28,010 nucleotides of DNA from IMG/VR virus record IMGVR_UViG_3300017650_000002. One strand, 5' to 3'. The notes under the pieces were generated by a model that was not told the DNA's origin, did not search any database, and worked only from the letters and a program-made list of their open reading frames with translations. This DNA is from a virus (lineage: Duplodnaviria; Heunggongvirae; Uroviricota; Caudoviricetes). A program made the position numbers and the translations under genes. Shown here piece by piece: positions 5,390 through 18,015 of this stretch. The first letter of the stretch is position 1; each line of letters opens with the position of its first letter.

Positions 5390-5466
5390 TCTCCTATAGC
5401 TCAGCGGTTAGTAGCAGCGGACTCATAATCCGTTGGTCCCTGGTTCAAATCCAGGTGGGAGAACCA
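5390..5466 (+). tRNA. tRNA with CAT anticodon (Ile2 or elongator Met), CCA encoded
   Basis: Acceptor TCTCCTA/TGGGAGA, anticodon arm GCGGA-CTCATAA-TCCGT, T-arm CCTGG-TTCAAAT-CCAGG, ACCA end. Confidence 0.92.
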
Positions 5467-5487: not shown

Positions 5488-5706
5488 ATGAAACCTGAAG
5501 TAAAGATTACAGATGTGGAGATTTGGCCTGCAAGTGGATATTTTGGACGAGCTTACGAGGGCCAGGAAGTGGCGACAGGTGTCTTGGCAGAGAAAGACCA
5601 CCGTGGGTGGCCTGAGGGCTATCCGATTCGTACAAGTATCATTGTAAACTACAATGAAGAAGATGGCATCATCGAAACACTAAACACTATCTACATTATT
5701 GTTTGA
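5488..5706 (+). CDS. Hypothetical protein (72 aa)
   Basis: GGAGG RBS and ATG 5488; the track start at 5455 lies inside the tRNA. Confidence 0.8.
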   Translation: MKPEVKITDVEIWPASGYFGRAYEGQEVATGVLAEKDHRGWPEGYPIRTSIIVNYNEEDGIIETLNTIYIIV

Positions 5707-5731
5707 CACGACGAAAATTTTGATGTAGAAT
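5703..5731 (+). promoter_or_regulatory. Sigma70 promoter of the tRNA/tRNA-like operon
   Basis: TTGACA-17 bp-TAGAAT; the -10 ends 10 bp before the first RNA. Confidence 0.85.
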
Positions 5732-5740
5732 ACGTTTTAT

Positions 5741-5863
5741 AGTTTGGTAGCTTAAAGATAGAGCAGTGGGCAAACATATAATGAATCCAGCGAAAGGCTT
5801 ACTGCCTTTATCGGGGAAGTCGTTAGACACCCATCAGTGCAGGTTCGACCCCTGCCCAAACTA
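5741..5863 (+). ncRNA. tRNA-like RNA with a 59-nt structured insert replacing the anticodon loop
   Basis: Acceptor AGTTTGG/CCAAACT, D-arm GCTT-AAAGATA-GAGC, anticodon stem GTGGG/CCCAT, T-arm GCAGG-TTCGACC-CCTGC; no encoded CCA. Confidence 0.8.
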
Positions 5864-5878
5864 TCTTATTAAGTTTCT

Positions 5879-5960
5879 CCGGGTGTATCTCAACGGTCTT
5901 CTAAACCGTCGTTAATCGAGTAATTGGAGTATGCAGGTTCGAGTCCTGCCATCCGGGCCA
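5879..5960 (+). ncRNA. D-armless tRNA-like RNA with TCT (Arg) anticodon and long variable region, CCA encoded
   Basis: Acceptor CCGGGTG/CATCCGG, only TATCTCA before the anticodon arm ACGGT-CTTCTAA-ACCGT, 23-nt variable region, T-arm GCAGG-TTCGAGT-CCTGC, GCCA end. Confidence 0.8.
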
Positions 5961-5966
5961 AAATAT

Positions 5967-6042
5967 ACGTCTGTAGCTCAGTGGATAGAGCGATCCCCTC
6001 CTAAGGGATAGGTCGTAGGTTCGATTCCTACCAGACGTGCCA
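5967..6042 (+). tRNA. tRNA-Arg(CCT), CCA encoded
   Basis: Canonical cloverleaf: ACGTCTG/CAGACGT, ATCCC-CTCCTAA-GGGAT, A20 and G73 Arg identity elements. Confidence 0.95.
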
Positions 6043-6060: not shown

Positions 6061-6255
6061 ATGCCAGTTGTCATCGGAAAGGACGAGTCAGTGTCTAAGG
6101 TCATCACTTGCAAGAACTGTGGTAGTGTGCTAAAGTACTATCCTAGTGAGGTAAGGACACTTTGGAGTGGAACAGATTACGGGGGAGGCCCTGACGGAGC
6201 TAAGGGATTCAATTGCCCCGGTTGTGGTCAGAAAGTCATTACTGAGAGTTGGTAA
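6061..6255 (+). CDS. Zinc-ribbon protein (64 aa)
   Basis: CKNC...CPGC; AGGAG RBS; ATG 6061. Confidence 0.8.
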   Translation: MPVVIGKDESVSKVITCKNCGSVLKYYPSEVRTLWSGTDYGGGPDGAKGFNCPGCGQKVITESW

Positions 6256-9993: not shown

Positions 9994-10113
9994 ATGACTG
10001 AAGATGAAGAAGAACGACTGGAGGAGGGAAAGATTAGGTGGCTAATCGAGCAGGCTAAGAAGCTATTCCCATATTGGGATGTGCCTAAAGTTGAGAAGTC
10101 CAATGAGCAGTAG
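9994..10113 (+). CDS. Hypothetical protein (39 aa)
   Basis: GGGAGG RBS, ATG directly after the previous stop; MTEDEEERLEEGKIRWL... Confidence 0.55.
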   Translation: MTEDEEERLEEGKIRWLIEQAKKLFPYWDVPKVEKSNEQ

Positions 10114-10951
10114 AGGGTGTTATGTCTATTGGATTAGAGGGTCAACTCACTCTGAAGTACTAACCGAGGGTTATGTAGGAATTTCTGTAGACCCTTACAA
10201 AAGGTTTGTTGAACATAAAAATTCAAAGGCAAAGTACTACAATAAAGATTTTAAACAAAATCTTGGGGAAGGGTTGTGTACCTTGGAGCTTCTATTTTAT
10301 GGGAGCGTAAGAGAGTGTTTTGATCTGGAAAATGAATTAAGACCTTTCAGTAATATAGGTTGGAACATTTCTCCGGGAGGTCTGGGGGGCTTAAATCTAA
10401 GTCATGGGCTTGCCGGACATCCAGTGTACAAACTCTACACTTATTATAAGGGGCTTTCAAAGTATGGAAAATTTTTACATAAAGATTGGCTTGGTCCAGC
10501 TGGCGTACTTAAGTTCATAGAGTTCTACGATTCCAAACCTGAAGGTACAAAACTAACGTTTACTTCCAAGGTAATGTCACAGGAAACCGCTGAATTTAAA
10601 ACTACAAAAGATATAAACAAAGAAATTCTCTCTAGCAGAGTGTTGTCTGGCATAGTAAATCCTGTGTCCACACTGGGTGATATCTTTGACATAAGACCTA
10701 ATACTATTTCAACTAGGATCTCCAGGGGATATTCTTTGGAAGAGGCATGTGGACTAGTTAAAAGACATAGCAGAATGGTTGTAGTTAATGGGGTTGAGTT
10801 TAAGTACAATGGTAAGCTCTCGGATAATCAAATAGAAACACTAGAGCGAATGTACATATCCGGTGAGAGTCAAGTCAGTATAGGGAAAGTTTTAAATATG
10901 AATAGCAGCAATATAGGTAGACTTTTGAGGAGGTTTAATCTTGCAGAGTAA
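10103..10951 (+). CDS. GIY-YIG homing endonuclease
   Basis: CYVYWI...GYVGIS...KRFVEH, later E and GWNISPGG; C-terminal DNA-binding/HTH-like modules; ATG 10103. Confidence 0.85.
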   Translation: MSSRGCYVYWIRGSTHSEVLTEGYVGISVDPYKRFVEHKNSKAKYYNKDFKQNLGEGLCTLELLFYGSVRECFDLENELRPFSNIGWNISPGGLGGLNLSHGLAGHPVYKLYTYYKGLSKYGKFLHKDWLGPAGVLKFIEFYDSKPEGTKLTFTSKVMSQETAEFKTTKDINKEILSSRVLSGIVNPVSTLGDIFDIRPNTISTRISRGYSLEEACGLVKRHSRMVVVNGVEFKYNGKLSDNQIETLERMYISGESQVSIGKVLNMNSSNIGRLLRRFNLAE

Positions 10952-15796: not shown

Positions 15797-17483
15797 AAGT
15801 TTTGAAGAGTTGAGTCAAGAGCGTAAGAAGCTGCAAGCAGAGGGACTACTACCAGGTTGGTACACAAGTCAAGCTTGGCAAATGTTTTCAGCAAAGTATG
15901 CTGTGCCAGGGGAGAAAGCTGTAAAGGGTAGGTTTGAAACTATTGCAAAGACCCTCTCTAAGCATATGATCGGTAGTGAGAAAGAATGGGAAAATAAGTT
16001 TTTTGATTTGATGTGGAAGGGTTGGCTGTCTCCTGCAACCCCAGTGCTTGCAAATTGTGGAACAGATCGGGGTATGACAGTATCTTGCTCTGGGGGTTAT
16101 ATTGGAGACTCTATTGACTCTTTTTACACCAATCTACACGAACAAGCCGTACTGTCTAAGTATGGATTTGGGTGTTCAGGTCATTTCTCTCATATCCGTC
16201 CCCGTGGGTCTTCTATCAGTGTAGGCGGTAAAGCTTCGGGTGTTGTACCTGTAATTCTAGACTTCTCTACTATGGCGTCTAAGGTTAGTCAGGGAAGTTC
16301 TCGTCGTGGATCTACTGCATCCTACTTGCATATTGATCATGGGGATTTTGATGAGCTTATTGATGTTCTGGAGTCAGAGCCTGATGGTTTGAACATTGGC
16401 TGGATTGTCACCGATGATTTTATCACTCGCCTTAAGGCCAACGACCAAGACGCGCAACGTAGGTTCAATCGTGCTTTGTATGTCAAGTTGGTGACAGGAA
16501 AGGGTTATTTCTTTTTTGTGGACAAGGCAAATCGTCATCGGCCTCAGGTCTACAAAGACTTAGGGCTTGACATTAAGGCCAGTAACCTGTGTACAGAAAT
16601 TATGCTGCACAGCTCAGACAAGTACTCTTTCTCTTGCGTGCTGAGTAGTATGAATCTATACAAGTATGATGAGTGGAAAGACACAGATGCCATCTTTGAA
16701 GCAACTGTATTCTTAGATTGTGTTGTCTCCGACTTCCTAGAGAAATCACAGGGGATTCATGGGCTAGAGAAAGTAAGGGCCTTCACAGAAAGGGGTCGGG
16801 CTATTGGACTGGGCGCTCTAGGTTTCGGTAGCTATCTTCAAAAGAAGAGGATTCCTTTTGAAGCCCTTGATGCCATGTACCTGAATGACGAAATCTTCAC
16901 ACGTCTGGACGAAGAGACAAAGAGAGCAAGTGTATGGTTGGCTAAAGAGTTTGGAGAGCCTGAATGGTGCAAAGGTTATGGAATTCGTAACACCCACCTA
17001 ACAGCCTTGGCACCTAATAAGTCTTCTGCCATCCTTATGGGTGGTATAAGCGAGTCAGTGTTTCCTGATCCGGGGATGGTGTTTGAACAGGGCAGCAGTG
17101 CAGGAGGTTTGTTTAGGATCACACCAGAGTTCTATCAACTTATGATGGAACGCGGTAAGTATAGCCAAGATGTCATTGACTCCATCATCCAAAATGTTGG
17201 AAGTGTTCAAAAGCTGGACTGGCTAACCCCAGAAGAAAAGCTGGTGTTTCGAACAGCCTTTGAGGTTGACCAAGAGGTGATTTTGAGGTATGCTTCCCTA
17301 CGTCAGCCTAAGCTGTCTCAGGGGCAATCTCTGAACTTCTTTGTCTCGGAAGATGGAGATGAGGAGCGTATCGCACGTCTACACACCCTAGCCTTCTTGG
17401 ATGAGGATGTACTGGCCTTGTACTATATCTACTCTCGTAGTGGTGTAGTTGTTAACAACTCTTGTGTGGCTTGCGAGGGGTAA
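15789..17483 (+). CDS. nrdA: Class I ribonucleotide reductase large subunit (no ATP cone)
   Basis: SPATPVLAN, VSCS, SNLCTE, APNKSS, LYY and C-terminal CVACEG. Confidence 0.95.
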   Translation: MAKSFEELSQERKKLQAEGLLPGWYTSQAWQMFSAKYAVPGEKAVKGRFETIAKTLSKHMIGSEKEWENKFFDLMWKGWLSPATPVLANCGTDRGMTVSCSGGYIGDSIDSFYTNLHEQAVLSKYGFGCSGHFSHIRPRGSSISVGGKASGVVPVILDFSTMASKVSQGSSRRGSTASYLHIDHGDFDELIDVLESEPDGLNIGWIVTDDFITRLKANDQDAQRRFNRALYVKLVTGKGYFFFVDKANRHRPQVYKDLGLDIKASNLCTEIMLHSSDKYSFSCVLSSMNLYKYDEWKDTDAIFEATVFLDCVVSDFLEKSQGIHGLEKVRAFTERGRAIGLGALGFGSYLQKKRIPFEALDAMYLNDEIFTRLDEETKRASVWLAKEFGEPEWCKGYGIRNTHLTALAPNKSSAILMGGISESVFPDPGMVFEQGSSAGGLFRITPEFYQLMMERGKYSQDVIDSIIQNVGSVQKLDWLTPEEKLVFRTAFEVDQEVILRYASLRQPKLSQGQSLNFFVSEDGDEERIARLHTLAFLDEDVLALYYIYSRSGVVVNNSCVACEG

Positions 17484-17484
17484 T

Positions 17485-18015
17485 ATGAAGAGGAAGGCTA
17501 AGGATTACTATAAAGACAGTTGGGTTGACATTTTCCGATACGATCCTTCCTCGCCCTCTGGCTTAAGTTGGAAAGGCAGACAAGGGGAGAGACCCGCTGG
17601 GTGGCAATGCCCCGATGGAAGGTGGAAGGTTGAATACCTGCACAAGCCTATTCAGGTACATAGGGTTGTCTACTTTCTTAACCATCTTCATCTACACGAA
17701 GATTATGTTGTAGATCATATTGACCAAAACCCTTCTAATAACCGTATTGATAACTTGAGGTTAGTGGAGTCTAAATTAAATTCCAGAAACAAGAAGAAAA
17801 GTCACTCGAATACCTCAGGAACTACCGGTGTATATGAAGTTCATGAGTGGGTGGCTACTTGGTCTGAGGATGGTCGTAATAGAAGTAAAGGTTTTAAGGT
17901 TTCTAAATATGGTGATAGAGCAAGGGAGGAAGCAGAAATCTATAGAGCTAAAAAGATAGAAAGTTTAAATAAATTAGGATATGGTTACACAAACACACAC
18001 GGTGAAAACCTATGA
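17485..18015 (+). CDS. HNH homing endonuclease with AP2-like C-terminal domain
   Basis: VHRVVY..VVDHIDQNPSNNRIDNLR..N, then NTSGTTGV...W.A.W; ATG 17485. Confidence 0.88.
   Translation: MKRKAKDYYKDSWVDIFRYDPSSPSGLSWKGRQGERPAGWQCPDGRWKVEYLHKPIQVHRVVYFLNHLHLHEDYVVDHIDQNPSNNRIDNLRLVESKLNSRNKKKSHSNTSGTTGVYEVHEWVATWSEDGRNRSKGFKVSKYGDRAREEAEIYRAKKIESLNKLGYGYTNTHGENL

Follow-up and report, generated by a model that had tools for sequence, protein, structure and literature searches.

A probable phage tRNA-Arg(UCU) with block-swapped D-arm parts and its large, apparently undescribed family

In a canonical tRNA the segments of the chain follow one another in the order 1-9, 10-21 (the 5' strand of the D-stem and the D-loop), 22-45 and 46-76. 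When such a tRNA folds into its L-shape, nt 9 touches the 12-23 pair and nt 45 the 10-25 pair, with nt 21 and 46-48 placed by the 13-22 end. A different gene order is found in the circularly permuted tRNA genes of the red alga Cyanidioschyzon merolae, in which the 3' half comes first and a circular intermediate restores a normal tRNA. The D-armless tRNAs of mitochondria, such as mammalian mt-tRNA-Ser(AGY) and nematode mt-tRNA-Ser(UCU) (PMC7609411), are truly devoid of D-stem and D-loop, have lost the contacts of the elbow and are served by adapted mitochondrial factors. The translation machinery of Escherichia coli also accepts a tRNA without the whole D-arm: the engineered 'mini HisT' is a non-cloverleaf tRNA used by a bacterial aaRS, EF-Tu and ribosomes, although it is artificial and needed a host pnp mutation in evolved E. 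coli (PMC11551756). Finally, the tRNA array units of bacteria, plasmids and phages have been discussed as putative anti-defense devices (PMC12803027).

The RNA element considered here lies at 5879-5960 of a 28,010-nt stretch of viral DNA (the window); its features are collected in Table 1. It shares a non-canonical segment order with the C. merolae genes, but its ends are normal, with acceptor strands at both ends of the gene, and the two blocks that appear to be swapped are internal, such that no single cut-and-join would restore the canonical order. In contrast to the mitochondrial D-armless tRNAs it keeps a D-stem-like helix and a GG-containing D-loop-like segment, and it stands in a bacterial context. 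It also differs from 'mini HisT' in belonging to a natural family that keeps all of the D-arm parts. Its relatives in cellular genomes recall the tRNA array units in that they lie within arrays, here of 20-25 tRNA genes. The closest likeness is to canonical tRNA-Arg(UCU), represented by the gene of phage Sharanji (L161:344-420) and by those in two further stretches (L036 and L058), with which the element shares the CUUCUAA loop, the 7 + 5 bp minihelix, the D-loop pattern AAYUGGA..A, A20, C35, U36, G/A73 and, in sister phages, the genomic slot. It departs from that gene in that the 5' strand of the D-stem and the D-loop come after the anticodon arm, in a non-cloverleaf arrangement, and in that the variable loop is reduced to ~1 nt.

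Table 1. Coordinates in the window of the element, of its proposed parts and of the neighboring RNA genes and promoter
Feature	Position	Strand	Basis or remark
tRNA-Met(CAT)	5390-5466	+	
Putative sigma-70-like promoter, TTGACA, 17 nt, TAGAAT	5703-5731	+	consensus scan, 11/12 matches
tRNA-like RNA	5741-5863	+	Rfam tRNA 46.2 bits
Probable rewired tRNA-Arg(UCU) element	5879-5960	+	sequence read and comparative alignment
Acceptor stem 5' strand, nt 1-7	5879-5885	+	pairs with 5950-5956; 7/7 pairs covary in relatives
U8, A9 (TA)	5886-5887	+	invariant columns 9-10 in alignment of 48 close relatives
D-stem strand UCUC, proposed spatial role nt 22-25	5888-5891	+	5889-5891 pair with 5920-5918
Single-nt linker, position 26 equivalent	5892	+	length 1 nt throughout 115 parsed members among the matches listed
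Anticodon arm	5893-5909	+	stem 5893-5897/5905-5909, loop 5898-5904, TCT at 5900-5902
8-nt linker CGTTAATC, positions 44-45 plus extra nt	5910-5917	+	
D-stem strand GAGU, proposed role nt 10-13	5918-5921	+	partner of 5888-5891
D-loop-like segment AAUUGGAGUA plus U48	5922-5932	+	proposed numbering
A14, A15, G18/G19, A20, A21, U48	5922, 5923, 5926-5927, 5928, 5931, 5932	+	proposed numbering
T-arm, stem GCAGG/CCTGC, loop TTCGAGT	5933-5949	+	Rfam alignment, pair counts
Acceptor stem 3' strand	5950-5956	+	pair counts
Discriminator G73 and encoded CCA	5957-5960	+	sequence
Canonical tRNA-Arg(CCU), AGG decoder	5967-6042	+	ARAGORN; Rfam 71.8 bits

Most of the features expected of a tRNA are present: a 7-bp acceptor stem on a 5-bp T-stem, a UUCRA T-loop, a discriminator, CCA, and a 5-bp anticodon stem carrying a 7-nt loop with U33. 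[quoted passage not shown] The Rfam tRNA model RF00005 scores the element at 35.4 bits, above its gathering score of 29, in an alignment with the D-arm deleted and ~20 extra nt placed in the variable region before the T-arm. ARAGORN in its default mode did not report the element, and its mitochondrial mode gave a partial match with anticodon TCT.

Relatives were collected by blastn and by three pattern scans of IMG/VR, the third of which set no constraint on the segment 3' of the anticodon arm, and a covariance model was built on 48 close copies. In these 48 distinct sequences covariation runs through the whole of the acceptor, anticodon and T stems (5/5 pairs in the anticodon stem) and the stems are 98.5% paired, with the observed values reached by none of 500 shuffles. 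The triplet CUC at 5889-5891 pairs with GAG at 5918-5920 across the anticodon arm and is 100% paired in the same set, one of its positions showing UA, GC and AU pairs and a second one CG, GC and UA; the residues at 5888 and 5921 stand opposite one another as an invariant U-U. In 96 distinct broader relatives among the matches listed (11 from cellular genomes) the paired fraction of this cross-arm helix is 99.3%, and at two positions four pair types occur; the alignment was fitted to the covariance model and so favors the helix somewhat. Sliding the partner strand by 1-3 columns as a control lowers the paired fraction to only 35-48% overall, and to 38-47% in the set of 96 taken alone. A parse that does not depend on the alignment gave the same picture, with a perfect complementary triplet followed by UA in 115 of the ~121 family-like matches listed, and eight different sequences on the 5' strand of the triplet among these 115 parsed members.

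The first-pass annotation had described this RNA as D-armless, with a TTAAT/ATTGG hairpin in its variable region and an alternative junction between TA(T)CTC and the second GAGTA. The sequence and coordinates it gave, as well as the acceptor stem, the CTTCTAA anticodon arm, the T-arm and GCCA, are all present; its account of the remainder does not survive the comparison. The variable-region hairpin is 82% paired and breaks at two positions (in 17 and 26 of the 48 sequences) with no compensation, and the pairing of the alternative junction is broken in 12 and 3 of the 48. Instead, the covarying 3-bp helix, the U-U apposition and the GG-containing loop 3' of the anticodon arm indicate, from comparative sequence data, that the element is not D-armless: the D-stem-like and D-loop-like parts are present in another order, and the comparison drawn earlier with D-armless mitochondrial tRNAs is accordingly misleading. 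The homolog search and covariation analysis that had been proposed as a check returned hundreds of relatives with structure-preserving changes. Had these carried a normal D-arm, a recent deletion or misassembly would have been indicated and the earlier description overturned; instead hundreds share the rewired form, although in one sister phage a canonical tRNA-Arg(UCU) occupies the slot.

Folding energies do not single out the proposed structure. In the nearest-neighbor calculation the rewired fold has an energy of -20.4 kcal/mol, 1.9 kcal/mol higher than the minimum free energy (MFE) of -22.3, and the 3-bp helix is not favored; the single-sequence fold has a z of -1.0, and the MFE fold is not conserved in relatives. 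Thermodynamic folding of a single sequence often likewise fails to single out D-stems.

The segments around the cross-arm helix also follow a fixed order. On its 3' side the parsed members continue with U, AA, 1-2 nt, GGA, 2-6 nt, A, U and the T-stem, and the strand before the anticodon arm reads UCNN followed by one nt, to which we assign the roles of 22-25 and 26. The linker 3' of the anticodon arm is 8, 5, 4 or 3 nt long depending on the subtype. Among the matches listed, GGA is present in 115 of 115 parsed members, including those found with the pattern that left this segment free, and the penultimate A in 111 of 112; U8, A9, A14, A15, GGA, A21 and U48 are all near-invariant among relatives. 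At the 15:48 pair 106 members have A:U, 4 have G:C and 2 have G:G (two of the six G15 members listed thus carry G rather than C at position 48), and because it varies like the Levitt pair of ordinary tRNAs it supports the numbering assigned here. The comparison gene of Sharanji has GCAC as this D-stem strand, with the D-loop AAUUGGAUA next to it on the 3' side.

Numbered in this way, the gene appears to run 1-9 / 22-45 / 10-21 / 48-76, that is, with two internal blocks exchanged relative to the canonical order. The swapped blocks would form the D-stem across the anticodon arm, and the D-loop would run straight into U48 and the T-arm. The new chain junctions, from 9 to 22, from 45 to 10 and from 21 to 48, would each join nucleotides that are neighbors in the canonical core, so the same tertiary contacts, and with them the same overall shape, could form. 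The contacts predicted to be kept are U8-A14, 15-48 and those of G18/G19 with the T-loop. Taking the established tRNA structure together with the mapped numbering, the rewired tRNA could adopt the usual L-shaped core. A return to the canonical order through cleavage and ligation, with RtcB as one possible enzyme, was considered and set aside, as three junctions would have to be rebuilt.

The set of nucleotides that confers arginine identity in bacteria comprises A20, C35, U/G36 and A/G73, with A20 the strongest determinant for the ArgRS of E. coli (PMC9976931). All four have counterparts in the element (the A20 equivalent, C35, U36 and G73). C35 and U36 are given by the UCU anticodon, and the 115 parsed relatives among the matches listed all carry NCU or NCG; the commonest anticodon loop, CUUCUAA, is found in 89 of them. 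An A follows directly after G18 and G19, and we take it to be the spatial equivalent of nt 20. At the discriminator position G or A is found in 95 of the 115 parsed members listed (G 55, A 40, U 15, C 5). Charging by the host ArgRS had initially been judged unlikely for want of A20; the GGA located 3' of the anticodon arm, and present in every parsed relative listed, removes the ground for that judgment.

The census of the family is biased, most members having been retrieved by patterns that fix UCU and GTATC, and since the retrieval patterns fixed UCU, the telling cases are the nine rewired genes that came as by-catch beside UCU copies. Their anticodons (CCU in 4, CCG in 2, ACG in 2 and UCG in 1) are all arginine, which points to drift only within what ArgRS accepts. 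Such arginine-only drift is what selection for arginylation would predict, and a pure mimic would have no such need. Two stretches hold tandem triplets of adjacent rewired genes with anticodons UCU, CCU and CCG (L155:2106-2346, + strand, and L091:8183-8421, - strand), and a third (L134:1178-1540, - strand) holds UCU, CCU and ACG copies with the third gene ~130 nt from the other two. The one candidate outside arginine is an RNA with anticodon UAU (L138:8810-8892, - strand; 41 bits with the rewired model), which has an irregular acceptor stem and is without GGA; it may be a non-arginine member of the rewired architecture or a decayed copy. In another contig, where the main copy has anticodon CCU, a divergent second UCU copy scores 52 bits (L067:13347-13426, + strand); its D-loop-like segment reads AAUUGGAUAG.

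The rewired gene commonly stands where a UCU tRNA would otherwise be missing. No other UCU tRNA was found in 38 of 40 viral stretches with at least 10 tRNAs, 19 of which hold a canonical Arg(ACG). The annotated tRNA regions that were read in Felixounavirus REP10 (~25 tRNAs annotated in the stretch) and in phage Antha (15 annotated tRNAs in the stretch) list no other tRNA-Arg. Among the Asteriusvirus phages, JNE01 and 121Q carry the rewired gene and their relative Sharanji carries a canonical tRNA-Arg(UCU) in the same slot, which extends from tRNA-Ser(UGA) to the same downstream gene and has conserved flanks and a related acceptor stem. In the long open reading frames (ORFs) of the window AGA and AGG occur at 9.8 and 13.7 per 1000 codons, together 45% of the arginine codons.

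Taken together, these comparisons make it likely that the element is a working, AGA-decoding tRNA-Arg(UCU) with a block-swapped D-arm. The RNA would be transcribed with two neighbors from the promoter at 5703-5731, trimmed as other tRNAs are, and charged by the host ArgRS through A20, C35, U36 and G73; it would then supply AGA decoding to a phage with the arginine codon usage described above. Its three-dimensional fold, expression, processing, modification, charging and decoding are what we infer from this comparison. A bolder version, which we consider doubtful, would place the gene in a lineage that covers five arginine anticodons, is charged by ArgRS and routinely used by bacterial ribosomes, and spreads among phages and mobile tRNA arrays by escaping a tRNA-targeting nuclease or quality-control system of the host.

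Nested within the favored reading is the proposal that this working tRNA-Arg was rewired to escape a nuclease or immunity system that reads the canonical D-arm or core, which we regard as possible but unlikely. Among phage tRNAs, variants of tRNA-Lys and tRNA-Tyr are known that escape anticodon nucleases. The carriers of the rewired gene are phages and chromosomal tRNA arrays, one of them with RtcB and HNH genes (Pyrinomonadaceae), and the rewired copy is spare in two cellular carriers that also have a canonical tRNA-Arg(UCU); the anti-defense role discussed for tRNA array units (PMC12803027) points the same way. However, the CUUCUAA loop is unchanged and would give no protection from nucleases that read the loop alone. 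Colicin D is a nuclease of that kind, and we know of none that requires the D-arm of tRNA-Arg. Nor is any defense or counter-defense gene consistently linked to the element in the stretches read, and the interchange of canonical and rewired forms in sister phages on E. coli hosts is compatible with near-neutrality. A role outside translation altogether, as a decoy or regulator that mimics tRNA-Arg and so sequesters an anticodon nuclease, ArgRS or some other factor that binds tRNA, is improbable. It would be in keeping with an anticodon loop and elbow nucleotides that are conserved far more strictly than the stems, and with rejection by standard tRNA finders, but such an RNA would need neither the full set of ArgRS determinants, the 7-bp acceptor stem, the discriminator and CCA nor diversification into five arginine anticodons. 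It would also not be expected in place of the only UCU tRNA in phages with 15-28 tRNAs, or in the slot of a canonical tRNA-Arg(UCU). Among the roles first suggested for the RNA, decoy, regulator and minimal AGA decoder, the evidence favors the AGA decoder.

The remaining alternatives are weaker still. If the 23 nt that precede the T-arm acted as a class II variable arm, the RNA might be charged by SerRS or LeuRS and AGA recoded, and the discriminator G73 and the tRNA-Leu or tRNA-Val labels given to copies in some records could be read in this sense. We hold this to be very improbable: there is no conserved, self-paired variable-arm hairpin, the nucleotides concerned form the cross-arm helix and the D-loop mimic, the insert is shorter in other subtypes, and the observed anticodons are all arginine. 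The low general tRNA score of 35.4 bits might suggest a decaying pseudogene, or an artifact of misassembly or deletion. The chance of this is negligible given the number of phage records (271) and of distinct metagenomic copies (more than 100) in which changes preserve the structure, and given that an independent run yielded a nearly identical copy, differing by 2 bases and 1 gap, beside the same neighboring tRNA; the comparative data refute the pseudogene or misassembly reading.

In the phage collection, blastn matched the 82-nt element, with little flank, at 81-95% identity in the 271 phage records. The carriers are Asteriusvirus (121Q-like jumbo phages), Vequintavirinae including Mydovirus, and Felixounavirus, together with T5-like Klebsiella phages, a Pectobacterium Straboviridae phage and Streptomyces phages. 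The pattern scans of IMG/VR added many more copies. The covariance model scores family members at 46-102 bits and ordinary tRNAs in the same stretches at no more than 32 bits; only three full-length matches fall between these ranges, one of them an ordinary tRNA. CCA is encoded in 68 of 112 relatives among the matches listed. RNA libraries from wastewater, compost and aquatic sources contain short contigs of relatives, which give no ends and no strand and may derive from DNA carry-over.

Where the gene is annotated in these records, it is labeled tRNA-OTHER, tRNA-Undet, tRNA-Leu or tRNA-Val. The copy in KM507819 (121Q) is deposited as tRNA-Leu and that in NC_048730 (Yaboi) as tRNA-Val(aac), and several other phage records overlay hypothetical-protein or HNH CDSs on the rewired tRNA-Arg. 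A full-text literature search, which did not cover subscription journals, found no description of the rewired architecture, and a 2020 review of non-canonical tRNAs contains no phage case (PMC7609411). This large phage family of arginine tRNAs with block-swapped D-arm parts is therefore apparently undescribed. If functional in translation, it would be a naturally occurring departure from the cloverleaf, carried by hundreds of phages, among them the well-used coliphage groups Felixounavirus, Vequintavirinae, Asteriusvirus and T5-like Klebsiella phages. It would imply that joining the same parts differently still yields a tRNA core, and would provide both a natural test of the true requirements of ArgRS, RNase P, EF-Tu, modification enzymes and the ribosome and a new scaffold for engineered tRNAs. 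As annotation pipelines miss or mislabel the gene, phage tRNA inventories and analyses of codon usage would wrongly report that an AGA decoder is absent.

In the window, the element is the third of four RNA genes that follow one another on the + strand (Table 1). The RNA that precedes it, at 5741-5863, has normal acceptor, D and T arms, carries a 58-nt insert where the anticodon loop would be and is without an encoded CCA; it has exactly the T-stem of the rewired tRNA, and it had no blastn match in the phage collection. The putative promoter ends nine bases upstream of this RNA, and from its position the RNAs at 5741-5863, 5879-5960 and 5967-6042 probably form one transcription unit. Directly 3' of the tRNA cluster, a 64-aa ORF (6061-6255, + strand) contains two CxxC pairs and gives weak zinc-ribbon matches below the Pfam cut-offs. 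The surrounding genes form a lytic-phage module for replication and nucleotide metabolism, with DNA polymerase, exonucleases, thymidylate synthase and ribonucleotide reductase, and the nearest relatives in the phage collection share ~60% identity in one replication protein (Pseudomonas KIL-type phages, Vequintavirinae). GIY-YIG and HNH homing-endonuclease-like genes, at 10079-10951 (+) and 17449-18015 (+), sit among the polymerase/exonuclease and ribonucleotide reductase genes.

Members of the family also occur outside phages. When one genome was scanned for each prokaryotic species, true members were found in 12 of 120 stretches among the matches listed, the carriers among these being MAGs of Blastocatellia, Pyrinomonadaceae, Clostridiaceae, Heliobacteriaceae and others. 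Each of five cellular genomes that were checked (G001 to G005) has one rewired copy. In two cellular stretches that were read, this copy lies inside an array of 20-25 tRNA genes, and in two further cellular genomes matches to the tRNA model cluster similarly around it. The example from Pyrinomonadaceae is a chromosomal array of ~20 tRNAs on a 636-kb contig (L282:9500-15100; G001, contig C15, ~626200-631800), set among housekeeping genes and flanked by those for NAD synthase, a phosphoesterase, MscS and an acyl-CoA ligase; within it are genes for an RtcB RNA ligase and an HNH endonuclease. Using a restrictive pattern, a canonical tRNA-Arg(UCU) was matched elsewhere in G002 and G004 and none was matched in G001, G003 or G005; since two carriers also possess the canonical gene, the rewired cellular copy looks like a spare on a mobile array. 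Such settings give no more than a hint that rewiring might help the tRNA to survive tRNA-directed attack. In two Acidobacteriota arrays the gene immediately after the rewired tRNA-Arg(UCU) is that of a tRNA-Ile(UAU) of 92-93 nt (L282:13846-13938, - strand; L283:9828-9919, + strand), which has a normal D-arm but also a variable arm that is long and paired, a feature not usual in isoleucine tRNAs.
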